Virus record (IMG/VR): IMGVR_UViG_3300045988_013344
Coordinates: 1 to 5,601 of that record
From: a virus
DNA length: 5,601 nt
Strand: one strand, 5' to 3'
Positions within the stretch are counted from its first letter, which is position 1. Each line of letters begins with the position of its first letter. The notes below the pieces were generated by a model, which saw only the letters and a program-made list of their open reading frames with translations, was not told where the DNA came from and did no database searches. This document shows positions 2,769 to 5,390 of the stretch, piece after piece. The position numbers were made by a program, and so were the translations under genes.

Positions 2769-3698
2769 ATGTCACTCACCTTAATGGGTCTGATCAAAGG
2801 CGGTCTCACTCTGGCAAGCACGTTATCCAGCATCTACAGCAGCATCAAAGGAAGCACTTCGAGCGCACGACAGCAAAGCACAATGCAAAACAGTGTCCAG
2901 AGCGGCACGACAATGGGGACGACCGCACAGGATACTACAAGCACAGGCGGCAGCACTCAGACCGGCAACACCGGAGCACTGGGAAATCTGTTGTCAACAG
3001 CACTCGGCACACCGACCGGGAACAACGCCGGAGCAGCCGCAAACTTCAACGCCGGACAGGTGCAGACAGCCAACAATCTGCAAAACGGTATGTGGAGCAT
3101 GGGCAACGTCATAAACCTCGGCAGTATGCTGGCATCCAACGCGATGAGTGCAGCAAGCCAAAGCAGCGCAATGCGGTACAACTCCAAAGAGGCCAAAGCT
3201 CAAAGAGACTGGCAAGAACGTATGAGTAGCACCAGCTATCAGAGAGGGGTTAAAGACCTCGAAGCAGCGGGGCTTAACCCGGTACTGGCAGCATACAACG
3301 GCTTTGGAGCACAGACACCGTCAGGCGGATACGGAAGCCTGGGCGGGGGCCAGACCTTCGGTCATACTCAAGCTATGGCAATACCGGCTGCAAAGAATGC
3401 AACAATGCAAGCCATGTACGACTATGGCAACAACACAGCACAAATCGTAGAAAACTTCCAAGCTGCCATCAACAGTGCAAAGCAATCATCGGACTACTGG
3501 ACAGCCGAACACCTTGAGCAGATGCAGCAGCAGACCGTAAGCAGCAGCGCTCAGACCGTGGGTCAGCTGGCCGAAGCGGGTAGGAACAGCAACGCTCAGA
3601 CCTCGAGCACCAGAGAGACCAGCGACAGCAAACAGACCAACGTAGCCGGTGAGCTGTCCGGTGAATGGACAAACAAAAAAGACAATCGTAGAAGATAG
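2769..3698 (+). CDS. VP2 minor capsid / DNA pilot protein of 309 aa.
   Basis: GGGGGTG ends 6 nt before the ATG at 2769. The N-terminus is hydrophobic (MSLTLMGLIKGGLTLASTL). A long S/T/G/Q/N-rich low-complexity core follows. The block SYQRGVKDLEAAGLNPVLAAYNG matches the conserved AYQR...AGLNP.LA signature of gokushovirus VP2. The gene sits immediately after VP1. Confidence 0.85.
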   Translation: MSLTLMGLIKGGLTLASTLSSIYSSIKGSTSSARQQSTMQNSVQSGTTMGTTAQDTTSTGGSTQTGNTGALGNLLSTALGTPTGNNAGAAANFNAGQVQTANNLQNGMWSMGNVINLGSMLASNAMSAASQSSAMRYNSKEAKAQRDWQERMSSTSYQRGVKDLEAAGLNPVLAAYNGFGAQTPSGGYGSLGGGQTFGHTQAMAIPAAKNATMQAMYDYGNNTAQIVENFQAAINSAKQSSDYWTAEHLEQMQQQTVSSSAQTVGQLAEAGRNSNAQTSSTRETSDSKQTNVAGELSGEWTNKKDNRRR

Positions 3699-3734
3699 TT
3701 GACAAAAACAGAAAAGAGGTGTATATTATGAGTG
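3699..3734 (+). promoter_or_regulatory. Near-consensus sigma70-type promoter: TTGACA (3699-3704), 17-nt spacer, TATATT (3722-3727). It drives the RHH gene.
   Basis: The -35 hexamer is perfect and begins 1 nt after the VP2 stop. The spacer is exactly 17 nt. The -10 matches TATAAT at 5 of 6 positions. AGGAGG at 3757-3762 sits 6 nt before the ATG at 3769. Confidence 0.7.
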
Positions 3735-3768
3735 TACCAATCGCACACTTAGCTACAGGAGGTTAACC

Positions 3769-3981
3769 ATGAGAACACAGATCACAAAACGATTCAATGT
3801 CAATCTGACTAAGGCCGAAGAAGACGCACTCAAAAACCTGACAGAAGAGTATGCAAACCGAAACTGGAAAGCAAACACATCTGACATCATCCGGGACGCA
3901 ATCGTATACTACAGCGAAAAGATGACGGACTACAAAACCGAAGCAGAGGCAATCAGCGAAGAGGAAGACTTGCCCTTCTAA
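3769..3981 (+). CDS. Ribbon-helix-helix (Arc/MetJ/CopG-like) DNA-binding protein of 70 aa. It has an acidic C-terminal tail ending EEEDLPF, which mimics the SSB C-terminal tip.
   Basis: The protein is MRTQITKRFNVNLTKAEEDALKNLTEEYANRNWKANTSDIIRDAIVYYSEKMTDYKTEAEAISEEEDLPF. It reads as an N-terminal beta-strand (RFNVNLT), helix A (AEEDALKNLTEEY), an N-rich turn, and helix B (SDIIRDAIVYY). This is the Arc-repressor topology. A dedicated strong promoter and a perfect AGGAGG RBS support it as a real gene. The last 6 residues resemble the bacterial SSB tail DDD[IL]PF. Confidence 0.75.
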   Translation: MRTQITKRFNVNLTKAEEDALKNLTEEYANRNWKANTSDIIRDAIVYYSEKMTDYKTEAEAISEEEDLPF

Positions 3982-3992
3982 GGGACGATTTT

Positions 3993-4008
3993 GCCGGGGA
4001 GACCCGGC
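3993..4008 (+). other. Short GC hairpin GCCGGG-GAGA-CCCGGC (GNRA-type loop) 12 nt downstream of the RHH stop. It could be a terminator or RNA-stability element, but it lacks a U-tract.
   Basis: The 6-bp G/C stem with a GAGA tetraloop is seen directly. No T-run follows (caaatctgcaac), so it is not a canonical intrinsic terminator. Confidence 0.25.
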
Positions 4009-4064
4009 CAAATCTGCAACATTTATCCATGAGTTCTTTTAAGAAAGTGCTAAATTTTGTGTCA

Positions 4065-4103
4065 ATGGGCCCCTATAACATCAAGAGGGTTATAGGGGCC
4101 CAT
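4065..4103 (+). promoter_or_regulatory. Perfect 15-bp inverted repeat: ATGGGCCCCTATAAC, loop atcaagagg, GTTATAGGGGCCCAT. It lies immediately upstream of the rep gene and overlaps its RBS region. It may be a candidate operator, a complementary-strand origin (in the ssDNA form), or a translational control hairpin.
   Basis: Positions 4065-4079 are the exact reverse complement of 4089-4103. The loop is 9 nt. No T-tract follows. The 3' arm ends 2 nt before the TTG/GTG/ATG start region of VP4. Confidence 0.6.
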
Positions 4104-4127
4104 TGAGGAAAGGTGCAGCGAAACTAT

Positions 4128-5237
4128 ATGTCATGTACAAGACCGCTCGTCAGGATACCGACAAGAAACGGAGATTTTCGCGTGGTGAGCCTGAAAGGAT
4201 ACTTAAGCCACAGCGGAAAGAACCTCGAATTTATCGCAGACAAAGAGCATCAGAATCTGAACGAGAAAAAAATCAAAGAGCTGCTGAAAGCTCAAGAAGC
4301 GCAGCTGCTACCGTGCGGACAATGTCCGGGATGCAAAATGGCAGCAGCATCCAGCTGGGCAAACCGGATGGAGCTAGAGCTGCCATACCATCAAAATGCA
4401 TGGTTCATCACATTCACATACGATGATGACAATATACCATACAGAATGACCTGGGACGAAGGAACAGGCGAAATACTTATTGAAAACTATAGTCTCAGGT
4501 ATGAAGATATGCAAAAGTTTTGGAAACGCCTCAGAAGGTACTTGGAGTATCACAAGATAAACAACGGAAAACTGATGTACTTCCAATGCGGTGAATATGG
4601 CGGAAAAACACACAGGCCACATTATCACGCGATCGTGTACGACATACCATTCACCAAGGACGAGCTGAAAATCTACAAAAAGAAAAACGGCGCTGTATAC
4701 TACAACGTCGATTGGTTTACCAAACTATGGGGCATGGGTCATGTGGTCATCGCAGCAGCAGAATGGAAAGCGATGGCATACACAGCAAGATACACCACGA
4801 AAAAGGTCTACGGAAAGGAAGGAAAAGAATTTTATAGAGAACTGGGAATTTTGCCTGAAAAGTGTAACATGAGCAAAAGACCAGCAATCGGAGCAAAATA
4901 TTTTGAGGAACATAGCGAAGAAATCTATAAAAAAGACAAAATACAGCTGAAGAACGGAAAAGTCTGCAAACCGCCGAAATACTTTGATAAACTATACGAT
5001 GCACAGTATCTTAGAAAACCACTCACAGATAAAGAAGTAGAAGACATTGAGCTAGTAATAGAAAAAGCCGAGTCCGATGAACTCAAAGCGATAAAGAGAA
5101 AACGTCGTAAATTAGCAAATGACGCACTCTTCGCCAAGCTCAAGCAGAACAACGGCTTAACCATGCAAGAGTATTATAGCAAGGAAGAGCAGAAAATGCA
5201 AGACAGGTTCAAAAAACTCATCCGGGAAGAAATCTAG
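4128..5237 (+). CDS. VP4 replication initiation protein (rolling-circle Rep, superfamily I HUH endonuclease; phiX174 gpA analogue). It is 369 aa from the ATG at 4128, or 374 aa if the in-frame GTG at 4113 is used.
   Basis: The N-terminus MSCTRPLVRIP...LPCGQCPGCK is the gokushovirus VP4 type. RCR motif 1 is FITFTYDD at about 4404-4427. Motif 2 (HUH) is RPHYHAIVYD at about 4614-4643. Motif 3 has two tyrosines spaced Y-x-x-x-Y (AYTARYTTKK, about 4770-4799; compare phiX174 gpA YVAKYVNKK). The TAG stop is at 5235-5237. I prefer the ATG at 4128 (AAGGTG 12 nt upstream), but the start is uncertain. Confidence 0.9.
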   Translation: MSCTRPLVRIPTRNGDFRVVSLKGYLSHSGKNLEFIADKEHQNLNEKKIKELLKAQEAQLLPCGQCPGCKMAAASSWANRMELELPYHQNAWFITFTYDDDNIPYRMTWDEGTGEILIENYSLRYEDMQKFWKRLRRYLEYHKINNGKLMYFQCGEYGGKTHRPHYHAIVYDIPFTKDELKIYKKKNGAVYYNVDWFTKLWGMGHVVIAAAEWKAMAYTARYTTKKVYGKEGKEFYRELGILPEKCNMSKRPAIGAKYFEEHSEEIYKKDKIQLKNGKVCKPPKYFDKLYDAQYLRKPLTDKEVEDIELVIEKAESDELKAIKRKRRKLANDALFAKLKQNNGLTMQEYYSKEEQKMQDRFKKLIREEI

Positions 5238-5306: not shown

Positions 5307-5346
5307 GGACGGCGTGGCCACGAAAGGCTGCGCCGTCCTTTTCATT
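5307..5346 (+). terminator. Rho-independent terminator downstream of rep. The stem GGACGGCG/CGCCGTCC closes a 16-nt loop and is followed by TTTTCATT.
   Basis: 5307-5314 (ggacggcg) is the reverse complement of 5331-5338 (cgccgtcc). A T-rich tract at 5339-5346 follows, about 70 nt after the rep stop. Confidence 0.6.
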
Positions 5347-5390
5347 CGGCGCACCAGCGCCGACCGGACGGCCTTAAACTCAAAAAGTGC

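Follow-up and report, generated by a model that had tools for sequence, protein, structure and literature searches.

The analysed stretch of DNA, IMG/VR virus record IMGVR_UViG_3300045988_013344 (5,601 nucleotides, hereafter the window), holds the complete genome of a gokushovirus-type microvirus, which is circular, has a unit length of 5,482 bp and shows a terminal redundancy of 119 bp. Between the genes of the pilot protein VP2 and of the replication initiator VP4, the window encodes a protein of 70 amino acids (aa) that most likely is a dimeric ribbon-helix-helix (RHH) protein binding double-stranded DNA (dsDNA) and that ends in a copy of the acidic tip of bacterial single-stranded DNA (ssDNA)-binding proteins (SSBs). 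Comparison of the family indicates that this tip is selected as a C-terminal short linear motif, whether it was gained repeatedly or retained while the linkers diverged. The parts, an RHH copy-control regulator and an SSB tip, are known; their combination and the cassette-like exchange in a minimal phage are new.

The open reading frame (ORF) occupies positions 3769-3981 of the + strand, stop codon included, and encodes MRTQITKRFNVNLTKAEEDALKNLTEEYANRNWKANTSDIIRDAIVYYSEKMTDYKTEAEAISEEEDLPF. A Shine-Dalgarno sequence, AGGAGG, can be read from the sequence at 3757-3762 (+ strand), 6 nt before the ATG at 3769, and AGGAG- or GGAGG-like ribosome-binding sites (RBS) are also kept in related genomes. 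The protein has 63 close homologues, and a profile search of 1.84 billion representative proteins yielded 37 clusters at 50% identity; the more distant cluster representatives number 36. Over 10 relatives, the ratio of non-synonymous to synonymous change (pN/pS) was 0.19 for the core, 0.21 for the whole gene and 0.47 for the linker, where the gene is most relaxed. Because it has homologues, a low pN/pS and a promoter and RBS kept in 34 genomes, the ORF is more than a product of chance, and these comparisons mark it as a real accessory gene carried by a single clade of gut gokushoviruses. In every case in which the surroundings were read (~40 loci), the gene stands between VP2 and VP4 in a microvirus genome of ~5.5-5.9 kb; within the loci sampled, the family is found in microviruses only. 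A first-pass annotation, made from the letters and an ORF list alone, had described a 70-aa ORF under a near-consensus promoter, with an AGGAGG RBS and an SSB-like C-terminus; all of these features are present where it had put them, and the gene is real and well signalled. MG945569, considered as a close relative without the gene (i.e., a natural knock-out), was set aside, as it carries a divergent tail-less copy.

Microviruses are regarded as nearly devoid of accessory genes; those named in the main survey of their gene content are methyltransferases and lysis peptidases only (PMC9239249). Full-text searches of an incomplete literature collection turned up no account of an RHH regulator in microviruses, nor of a dsDNA-binding protein other than SSB that mimics the SSB tip. 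The first-pass annotation had called RHH regulators unreported for microviruses, which accords with the literature that could be searched.

The SSB-like tail and its distribution

The tail consists of a variable linker, TDYKTEAEAI (residues 53-62; 3925-3954, + strand), which is predicted to be disordered, and of an acidic tip, SEEEDLPF-COOH (residues 63-70; 3955-3978, + strand), which has the form of the SSB C-terminal-tip docking motif. The tail peptide of the window protein is TEAEAISEEEDLPF. In the AlphaFold2 model, residues 51-70 have a predicted local distance difference test score (pLDDT) of about 53, i.e., they are predicted to be disordered. The SSB tips of S. aureus and B. subtilis read IDISDDDLPF, and that of E. 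coli reads DDDIPF (PMC5531588). Over 9-10 residues, the tail of the window protein (AISEEEDLPF) matches the Gram-positive tip DISDDDLPF, so that the description of the C-terminus as a copy of the SSB tip, already made in the first-pass annotation, is upheld. As in the C-terminal tail of bacterial SSBs (SSB-Ct), an acidic run and [IL]-P-F-COOH follow a disordered linker, and the tip is kept while the linker is free to vary. In contrast, the carrier is an ssDNA-binding OB-fold tetramer in SSBs and a putative sequence-specific dsDNA-binding RHH protein here, and Glu makes up most of the acidic residues in the clade of the window. The Pfam, PHROG and NCBIfam matches of the 70-aa protein are of the RHH type and include no SSB or OB-fold family; the protein is not an SSB, and its likeness to one is confined to the tail. 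When SSB tips are recognised, the carboxylate of the terminal Phe is bound, and the tip docks onto PriA, DnaG, chi and DnaE; the extreme C-terminal position of the motif fits this mode of recognition because it is the terminal carboxylate that is bound. Searching the PDB with the tail peptide alone gave no match. A beta-clamp-binding motif, the consensus of which is QL[SD]LF or QLxLxL, was considered and rejected: in the tails, which follow the pattern [DE]-[DEKN]-L-P-F, acidic residues occupy the positions expected for Q-L.

Conservation of the tip extends from close to distant relatives. An [LI]PF end is shared by 45 of the 63 close homologues, with EEENLPF, EEEELPF, EEEDIPF and similar variants of the tip and two singletons, LPC and LPL. 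Seven of the 36 distant representatives (P0079, P0084, P0088, P0091, P0092, P0096 and P0099), which are 33-47% identical to the window protein, end in [DE]x-LPF. The first-pass annotation had named a lack of tail conservation in homologues as refuting its reading; it is as a tip that the tail is conserved. The [DE]x-LPF C-terminus occurs in at least eight scattered lineages; the linkers of LPF-tailed lineages are unrelated, with 21 to 75 residues between the start of helix B and the C-terminus. The L-P-F codons differ synonymously from lineage to lineage (TTG/TTA, CCC/CCA/CCG and TTC/TTT), and the stop codon may be TAA, TGA or TAG. As L-P-F is kept while codons and stops differ, the constraint acts on the peptide. 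Codons 63-70 show no non-synonymous change among 10 relatives (pN = 0).

The tail is distributed unevenly over the family. In a neighbour-joining tree of the RHH core (~50 residues; indicative only), LPF-tailed proteins are placed in at least seven positions among tail-less sisters, including L004 versus L039, P0091 versus L036-L038 and P0098, and P0099 versus P0077. One subclade (L018-L028, L009 and L023, as well as P0065 and P0067) bears another C-terminal motif, TG[YA][TV]F[AT]NEW[KSQN] (TGYTFANEW), which may be a second docking peptide with another partner, and many members of the family have no C-terminal extension of any kind. The RHH core of L015 is 90% identical to that of the window, whereas from about residue 53 onwards its tail, intergenic region, hairpin type and VP4 (47%) match L031 and L033; this switch of lineage marks L015 as a recombinant with its breakpoint where the RHH core ends. 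From these sequence patterns, the tail behaves like a host-interaction module. In L029, two RHH genes stand in tandem, the first (3970-4173) encoding a tail-less protein of 67 aa and the second (4170-4379) a divergent paralogue of 69 aa that ends in NDDLPF; a Pfam search with the second paralogue gave no match. This arrangement suggests a division of labour between the paralogues or the formation of heterodimers.

The same tip is present on other phage proteins. In IMG/VR, a scan for DDDLPF preceding a stop codon returned at least 120 loci (L070-L189). Among the matches listed, DDDLPF-COOH stands on many canonical phage SSBs, and the non-canonical carriers comprise a Rad52-like protein (PF04098; L140), SpoVG (L109), a DUF3127 protein (L088), a DUF968-like protein (L189) and a weak DUF736 match (L124). 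The small carriers L122 and L182 have no family, and L185 gave weak DUF matches only. None of the 120 matches listed is a microvirus locus, and none of the ten DDDLPF carriers that were scanned against Pfam has an RHH match. These proteins share with the microvirus RHH protein the same tip at the extreme C-terminus; in contrast to it, they lie on contigs of dsDNA phages, and several are plausibly ssDNA-binding or ssDNA-processing proteins, to judge from their family names. Read in this way, the tip appears to be a portable module that phages attach to mostly DNA-associated proteins. Because it recurs on such proteins, the microvirus tail may be read as a recruiting peptide on a DNA-bound carrier. 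The other carriers lower its uniqueness; what is unusual here is that the carrier is a putative sequence-specific dsDNA-binding regulator and that the phage is a minimal ssDNA phage. The occurrence of the tip on other phage folds, the exchangeability of the tail and the analogy to the copG-repB operon treated below were all absent from the first-pass annotation.

The probable ribbon-helix-helix core and its promoter region

The putative RHH core comprises residues 1-52 (3769-3924, + strand), with a strand at residues ~6-13 (TKRFNVNL), helix A at residues 15-30 and helix B at residues 37-52. An alignment of 42 diverse members of the family gives the consensus M-K-S-Q-x-x-K-R-I-N-I-N-L-T, followed by a helix, a variable loop and S-D-I-I-R-D-A-I-x-x-Y. 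Residues R8, N10, T14 and R42 are invariant in this alignment, and N12, L13, D39, I41, A44 and I45 are conserved in at least 90% of the members. Along the strand (K7-R8-F/I9-N10-V/I11-N12-L13-T14), polar and hydrophobic residues alternate. In RHH proteins, the polar residues of such a strand face the DNA and the hydrophobic ones the core, and two strands make up the antiparallel, DNA-reading ribbon of an intertwined homodimer. AlphaFold2 predicted helices at residues 15-30 and 37-52 of the window protein (mean pLDDT 66) and, in the homologue P0075, an extended segment at residues 1-14 and helices at residues 15-30 and 37-57 with pLDDT values of 92-97. P0075 (125 aa) was considered as a single-chain double RHH and rejected as such, its model containing the first RHH-like unit only, plus further helices.

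All RHH matches in Pfam and NCBIfam lie below the curated cut-offs (for NCBIfam, 19 bits against 60). At this sub-threshold level, Pfam RHH_1 was matched by 14 of the 42 members (best E 1.1e-4), CcdA by three, 56B_RHH by two and RHH_3 by one, and the NCBIfam models matched were aCcr1 (19 of 42), ORF56 copy-control (4 of 42) and NikR (one). The top matches of a profile search of the PDB were TTHA0139 (E 0.037) and ParD (E 0.13). Alignments made with hhalign were in register with CopG (P 3e-4, probability 38%) and with the N-terminus of NikR (P 1e-3), the sequences of both having been entered by hand, and the JGI pipeline labels the homologue P0001 an Arc/MetJ-type RHH regulator. Since the recurrent sub-threshold families are almost all RHH families and since an alternating strand is followed by two helices, sequence and model together make an RHH fold probable in our view. 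The RHH layout proposed in the first-pass annotation therefore stands as regards the alternating strand, the two predicted helices and the recurrence of RHH profiles at the sub-threshold level. A ParD/CcdA-type antitoxin was considered and discarded: the neighbouring genes are VP2 upstream and VP4 downstream, and a toxin family was found in no ORF. In the giant protein P0097 (2,936 aa), the RHH profile has four weak matches (E 1.7e-5).

The gene is preceded by a sigma-70-type promoter at 3699-3727 (+ strand), consisting of TTGACA (3699-3704), a 17-nt spacer and TATATT (3722-3727). With 11/12, it is the top promoter-like site in the window, in line with the near-consensus promoter and AGGAGG RBS reported in the first-pass annotation. 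In the 100 nt located 5' of the gene, aligned for 34 distinct genomes, near-invariance extends over both hexamers (-35 and -10), part of the spacer between them and the 22 nt that follow the -10 hexamer. The block GGTGTATAwTATGrGTGTAc.AATC..ACAC (3718-3749) overlaps both the -10 hexamer and the presumed start of transcription, and it contains three GTGT boxes spaced 13 bp apart, direct at 3719-3722 and 3732-3735 and inverted at 3745-3748. It retains at least 90% column identity although the RHH proteins fall to 31-45% identity. At its outer positions, the inverted repeat varies symmetrically (A..T in 22, G..C in 7, G..T in 5 and A..C in 0 genomes, counted by eye). An RNA or DNA hairpin was rejected for this repeat, which folds at -2.3 kcal/mol (z -0.38) and is no stabler than shuffled sequences; as hairpin stability is lacking, a protein-binding or promoter role is favoured for the block. 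Because both the DNA block and the DNA-facing residues of the protein are invariant, we suspect a cognate operator-repressor pair, with 3718-3749 as the candidate RHH operator.

Sequences similar to this block also occur in bacterial DNA. A scan of the GTDB species genomes with a 19-nt conserved promoter block gave 25 matches, a number near the roughly 17 expected by chance (our own estimate) and hence no pointer to a host, and none of the 25 lies beside microvirus genes. The phage block GGTGTATAATATGGGTGTA is found in one promoter, probably orthologous throughout, that lies upstream of a gene starting ATGAAAGCACT in several metagenome-assembled genomes (MAGs) of Eubacteriales/Clostridia. About ten MAG loci have a similar promoter, L043, L046, L052, L055, L057, L058, L061, L063 and L064 among them. 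The phage -10 hexamer and the region downstream of it thus resemble a promoter of Eubacteriales/Clostridia MAGs.

The terminator scan called no terminator-like site on the + strand between the RHH stop codon at 3981 and VP4 at 4128. A terminator-like hairpin with a T-run lies at 5307-5348 (+ strand), with a stem of 13 pairs, 10 of them GC, followed by TTTTCATTCG, and likely ends the RHH-VP4 transcript. No second good promoter was found upstream of VP4, the sole other good promoter-like site lying 3' of VP4. As no terminator separates the genes, a terminator follows VP4 and no other promoter precedes it, the simplest reading of the sequence is that the RHH gene and VP4 form a two-gene operon and would be co-transcribed. 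The RHH cassette (promoter, GTGT-box block, Shine-Dalgarno sequence and RHH gene) looks as if it had been inserted between VP2 and the hairpin/VP4 region.

Possible roles of the tailed protein

By analogy with known systems, we propose, as the most likely reading, that the protein combines a CopG/ORF56-like autoregulator of the RHH-rep operon with SSB-tip docking of host proteins, a chain that we consider plausible as a whole although it falls somewhat short of an even chance. As CopG does in CopG-RepB and as in the case of ORF56, the RHH protein would bind the invariant GTGT-box block over its own -10 hexamer and transcription start and would thereby regulate its own synthesis, which would set the dose of the HUH Rep protein VP4. 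The SEEEDLPF tip would dock into the SSB-tip pockets of host SSB-interacting enzymes. A dimer, or a dimer of dimers, bound to the operator would display two to four SSB-like tips, and host replication and repair proteins would be tethered to the replicative form (RF) near the rep gene and the origin-like hairpin. More specifically, the bound RHH protein could act as a surrogate SSB hub that nucleates host primosome, polymerase or repair proteins, the recruiting peptide (LPF, FANEW or none) being swapped among nearly identical phages to match the host; in this extended form the proposal is a long shot, and we rate it as rather improbable.

The proposal has several precedents. In the rolling-circle plasmid pMV158, copG encodes a 45-aa RHH repressor that is co-transcribed with the HUH initiator gene from one strong, repressed promoter and governs the initiator's level (PMC2724298). 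The order of elements is the same in the window, i.e., promoter, RHH gene and HUH rep gene, with no terminator-like site called in between; however, CopG (pMV158/pLS1) has no C-terminal extension or SSB-like tip and serves a plasmid replicon, whereas the window is the genome of an encapsidated ssDNA phage. Homology to CopG is marginal (hhalign probability 38%), and repression and operator are candidates only in the present case. ORF56, which sits upstream of the replication gene of the Sulfolobus plasmid pRN1, and aCcr1, found in Sulfolobales and their viruses, are likewise tiny RHH regulators of mobile elements, and their NCBIfam models were the most often matched; these are, however, archaeal systems, none with an SSB-type tail, and the matches reach 19 bits against a cut-off of 60. 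Viral homologues of aCcr1 have been described (PMC9976892, PMC9976878). RHH proteins are also accessories of HUH relaxases, such as pLS20 Aux1/Aux2, the TraY/TrwA-type proteins and RA3 MobC, which autoregulates mobC-nic (PMC5675868, PMC4175270). These systems share with the window the pairing of a small RHH protein with an HUH enzyme; there the enzyme nicks DNA, the two genes often form a single autoregulated operon, and the RHH protein binds close to the enzyme's site of action. In contrast, they act at oriT in conjugation, whereas here the origin-like hairpin lies ~330 bp downstream of the candidate operator and occurs in a related virus that has no RHH gene there. For the tail, a parallel exists in phage T7, in which the acidic C-terminal tails of gp2.5 and gp4 end in Phe and share a docking site on the polymerase. 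The T7 tails are a phage-specific motif that binds phage proteins, whereas the microvirus tail copies the tip of a host SSB.

A number of observations weigh against this combined proposal. The invariant block could be kept purely as a promoter or initial-transcribed sequence. In the tail codons, the synonymous rate pS is 0.055, against 0.40 in the core, among close relatives, and these low-pS codons run on into a near-identical intergenic block (3982-4060, including AACATTTATCCAT) that is recognisable in distant genomes. Short-range conservation of the tail may therefore stem in part from recombination or from a constraint at the nucleotide level, and for this reason the argument for selection on the peptide rests on the deep comparisons. 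The near-isogenic genomes L019, which has a FANEW tail, and L021, which is tail-less, have a VP4 that is 93% identical to that of the window, and their VP1, VP2, VP3 and VP5 are as similar to those of the window as are those of LPF-tailed relatives. As near-isogenic phages lack or swap the tail, it is not essential to replication by VP4; whatever it recruits is thus not essential, and the tail itself is a dispensable, exchangeable module. Finally, no binding was seen between S. aureus PriA and the SSB-Ct peptide of the same species (PMC5531588), so that the presence of the tip guarantees no particular partner. As a side observation, tail and intergenic stretch might be exchanged together in recombination, or a further cis element might lie in the stretch.

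A different use of the same tip would be that of a decoy: dimerised and highly expressed, the tips would titrate host SSB-interacting enzymes (Ung, RecJ, RecQ, RecG and PriA) in solution, with the effect that phage ssDNA is protected or host DNA maintenance is shut down. An abundant protein would fit the strongest promoter and the consensus Shine-Dalgarno sequence of the genome, and a tail that is dispensable, repeatedly gained or lost, and swapped is typical of arms-race modules. Yet a decoy needs no sequence-specific DNA-binding carrier, and the tip recurs on the RHH protein and on no other protein of the window; its presence on DNA-binding proteins of other phages suggests tethering instead, and the product of an autorepressed gene usually stays below the stoichiometric excess that titration requires. 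We therefore regard a decoy as unlikely, though worth keeping in mind. The partner might also be internal to the phage, the tail binding VP4 (or VP5) in the style of an antitoxin or a relaxosome accessory, so that the RHH protein modulates or delivers Rep at the protein level besides acting on its transcription; such a partner may itself own an SSB-tip pocket for SSB-coated ssDNA. The architecture of an RHH domain with a disordered extension, the weak CcdA and ParD matches, the position of the gene directly upstream of the HUH Rep gene and the relaxase-auxiliary precedents (PMC5675868, PMC4175270) all speak for this possibility. However, tail and VP4 do not co-vary, since a 93% identical VP4 is found with FANEW-tailed and tail-less RHH proteins; the motif agrees residue by residue with the tip of host SSB, which speaks for a pocket of the host type; and Pfam and PHROG scans found no toxin-like gene. 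An internal partner is thus improbable.

Comparably small is the likelihood that the tail has no external partner, being an autoinhibitory DNA mimic folded on the basic ribbon, a neutral or degron-like extension, or a coincidental LPF. The tail is strongly acidic and predicted to be disordered, tail-less versions are evidently functional, and a similar fold-back has been proposed for the acidic tails of SSB, T7 gp2.5 and T4 gp32; but mimicry by charge needs no exact L-P-F, and L-P-F is kept while the acidic count and the linker vary, the sole variation of the tip being I for L, as among SSBs. We consider a role as a stage-I replication factor, which would act in the conversion of ssDNA to RF, or as a lysogeny-type repressor, both of which the first-pass annotation had put forward, to be very improbable. 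A stage-I factor would accord with the SSB tip being a known docking peptide and with the long hairpin nearby. However, incoming ssDNA cannot be transcribed, so that the protein would be made only after RF formation unless it were packaged, and could serve later rounds at best; moreover, the tail is absent from the near-isogenic L021 and replaced in L019, and in Dulem virus 205 the hairpin occurs with no RHH gene beside it. As for a lifestyle switch, a repressor or lysogeny module of a temperate phage was rejected: no integrase is present among the ORFs, a protein-alignment scan of 185,579 GTDB species genomes found no relative, and the single host-flanked contig, L001, ends in adapter sequence and is probably chimeric.

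Whatever the partner, the locus provides a concrete regulatory cassette, with promoter, invariant candidate operator, RHH gene and rep gene, and the family constitutes a natural experiment on the SSB interactome in which a docking peptide of 6-9 residues has been grafted repeatedly onto a non-SSB, putatively dsDNA-binding scaffold. If the tip binds host SSB-interacting proteins, a phage would thereby mimic a bacterial hub through a short linear motif, and it would become apparent which host enzymes are key to the replication of ssDNA phages in gut Firmicutes. SSB-tip pockets are under pursuit as targets for antibacterials (PMC5872125), and the tip would in that case furnish a small probe or inhibitor for them that can be genetically encoded. 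If the surrogate-hub form were true, it would add a new, modular hijack of the SSB interactome for microviruses and possibly for other rolling-circle replicons, and it would be the first case described, within the literature searched, of a dsDNA-binding transcription factor that mimics the SSB tip. If the tip binds nothing, the gene would still be the first candidate for a transcription regulator to be characterised in a gokushovirus.

Hairpins, genome context and host

Two hairpins lie between the RHH gene and VP4. The first, at 3987-4014 (+ strand), follows directly after the stop codon and consists of GCCGGG-GAGA-CCCGGC with extended flanks; it folds as DNA at -10.8 kcal/mol (z -4.6). Hairpins with other stem sequences occupy the same position in relatives and are missing from some genomes. 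The 3987-4014 hairpin has no T-run and was not called by the terminator scan. The second hairpin, which the first-pass annotation had noticed near 4065-4103, is real and spans 4062-4106 (+ strand), immediately upstream of the VP4 RBS. It has an 18-bp stem, a loop ATCAAGAGG at 4080-4088 and a 5' flank TTGTGTCA, and folds at -20.2 kcal/mol (z -8.4). Loop and 5' flank are invariant, and compensatory changes affect 12 of 14 pairs across 26 genomes. Directly upstream of VP4, a hairpin of this type likewise occurs in Dulem virus 205 (L069, about 2596-2636), in which no RHH gene lies at the VP2-VP4 position. Since Dulem virus 205 has the hairpin without the RHH gene, the hairpin belongs to the VP4/origin region and not to the RHH cassette, and it is a candidate origin, single-strand origin or other VP4-linked cis element. 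A search of Rfam gave only sub-threshold chance matches on it. The complement of the loop, CCTCTTGAT, contains CTTGAT on the non-coding strand, which we take to be the core of the phiX174/pC194 nick-site consensus.

Dulem virus 205 also has, downstream of VP4, an ORF of 62 aa (L069 4023-4211; XCD08479) that looks RHH-like by eye (KTVRMS...TDSHVIKYAVENL) and has an acidic C-terminus, without Pfam support. This ORF sits behind a promoter-like site, TTTACA-17-TAAAAT.

All genes of the window are on the + strand, as seen from the ORF list and from the Pfam and PHROG matches. VP5 (372-635) matches PF20577 (Phage_ORF5), the VP3 scaffold (616-1128) PF09675 (Chlamy_scaf) and the VP1 capsid protein (1125-2756) PF02305 (Phage_F; E 6e-161). 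VP2 (2769-3698) is a PHROG pilot/minor tail protein, and the HUH replication initiator VP4 (4128-5237) matches PF23343 (REP_ORF2-G2P; E 2e-15) and phrog_942 (E 7e-98). The mechanically defined VP4 ORF begins with GTG at 4113, but relatives favour the ATG at 4128 (MSCTRPL...) and show a conserved ATGxCATG context and an RBS-like GGAAAGGTG at the VP4 start, and by this comparison the real start is likely ATG 4128 rather than GTG 4113. The nearest GenBank records, KX513873 (a human gut gokushovirus) and Microviridae from pig faeces, are 86-89% identical in nucleotide sequence and hold the same 70-aa ORF, which is unannotated there. From the sigma-70-type promoters, the strong Shine-Dalgarno sequence and the LPF (not IPF) tip after I-S, we infer that the host is a Firmicute-like gut bacterium.

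The 48,421-bp contig L001 (ENA ERZ27281030, k141_41694) was considered as a prophage and rejected as such: it holds the viral circle minus 92 bp and ends in Illumina adapter sequence, and is therefore probably a chimera. The junction lies at 6173/6174, and the end at 11838-11856 is the adapter AGATCGGAAGAGCACACGT. The flank is bacterial or plasmid-like, with genes for a ParM-like ALP_N protein, DUF5720, HTH_3 and an FtsX/MacB ABC transporter, and a comparison of this flank with plasmids gave no match.

Upstream of VP5 lie a basic ORF of 39 aa (240-359, + strand; phrog_10695) and an ORF of 35 aa (133-240, + strand) without a family match. The latter (MITLKDVKGIFNQLRKILAMLDKIYHALNLDKEEK, 34-35 aa) is kept in relatives (L001 6265-6369 and L002 686-790). 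The 3' end of VP3 contains a perfect 15-bp tandem duplication, CCTGGCACGGAAGAA x2 at 1069-1098, which encodes PGTEEPGTEE. A related LPF-tailed microvirus, L006, carries at 96-479 a Peptidase_M15 gene, which belongs, like those known from some microvirus families, to the accessory genes of the lysis type.

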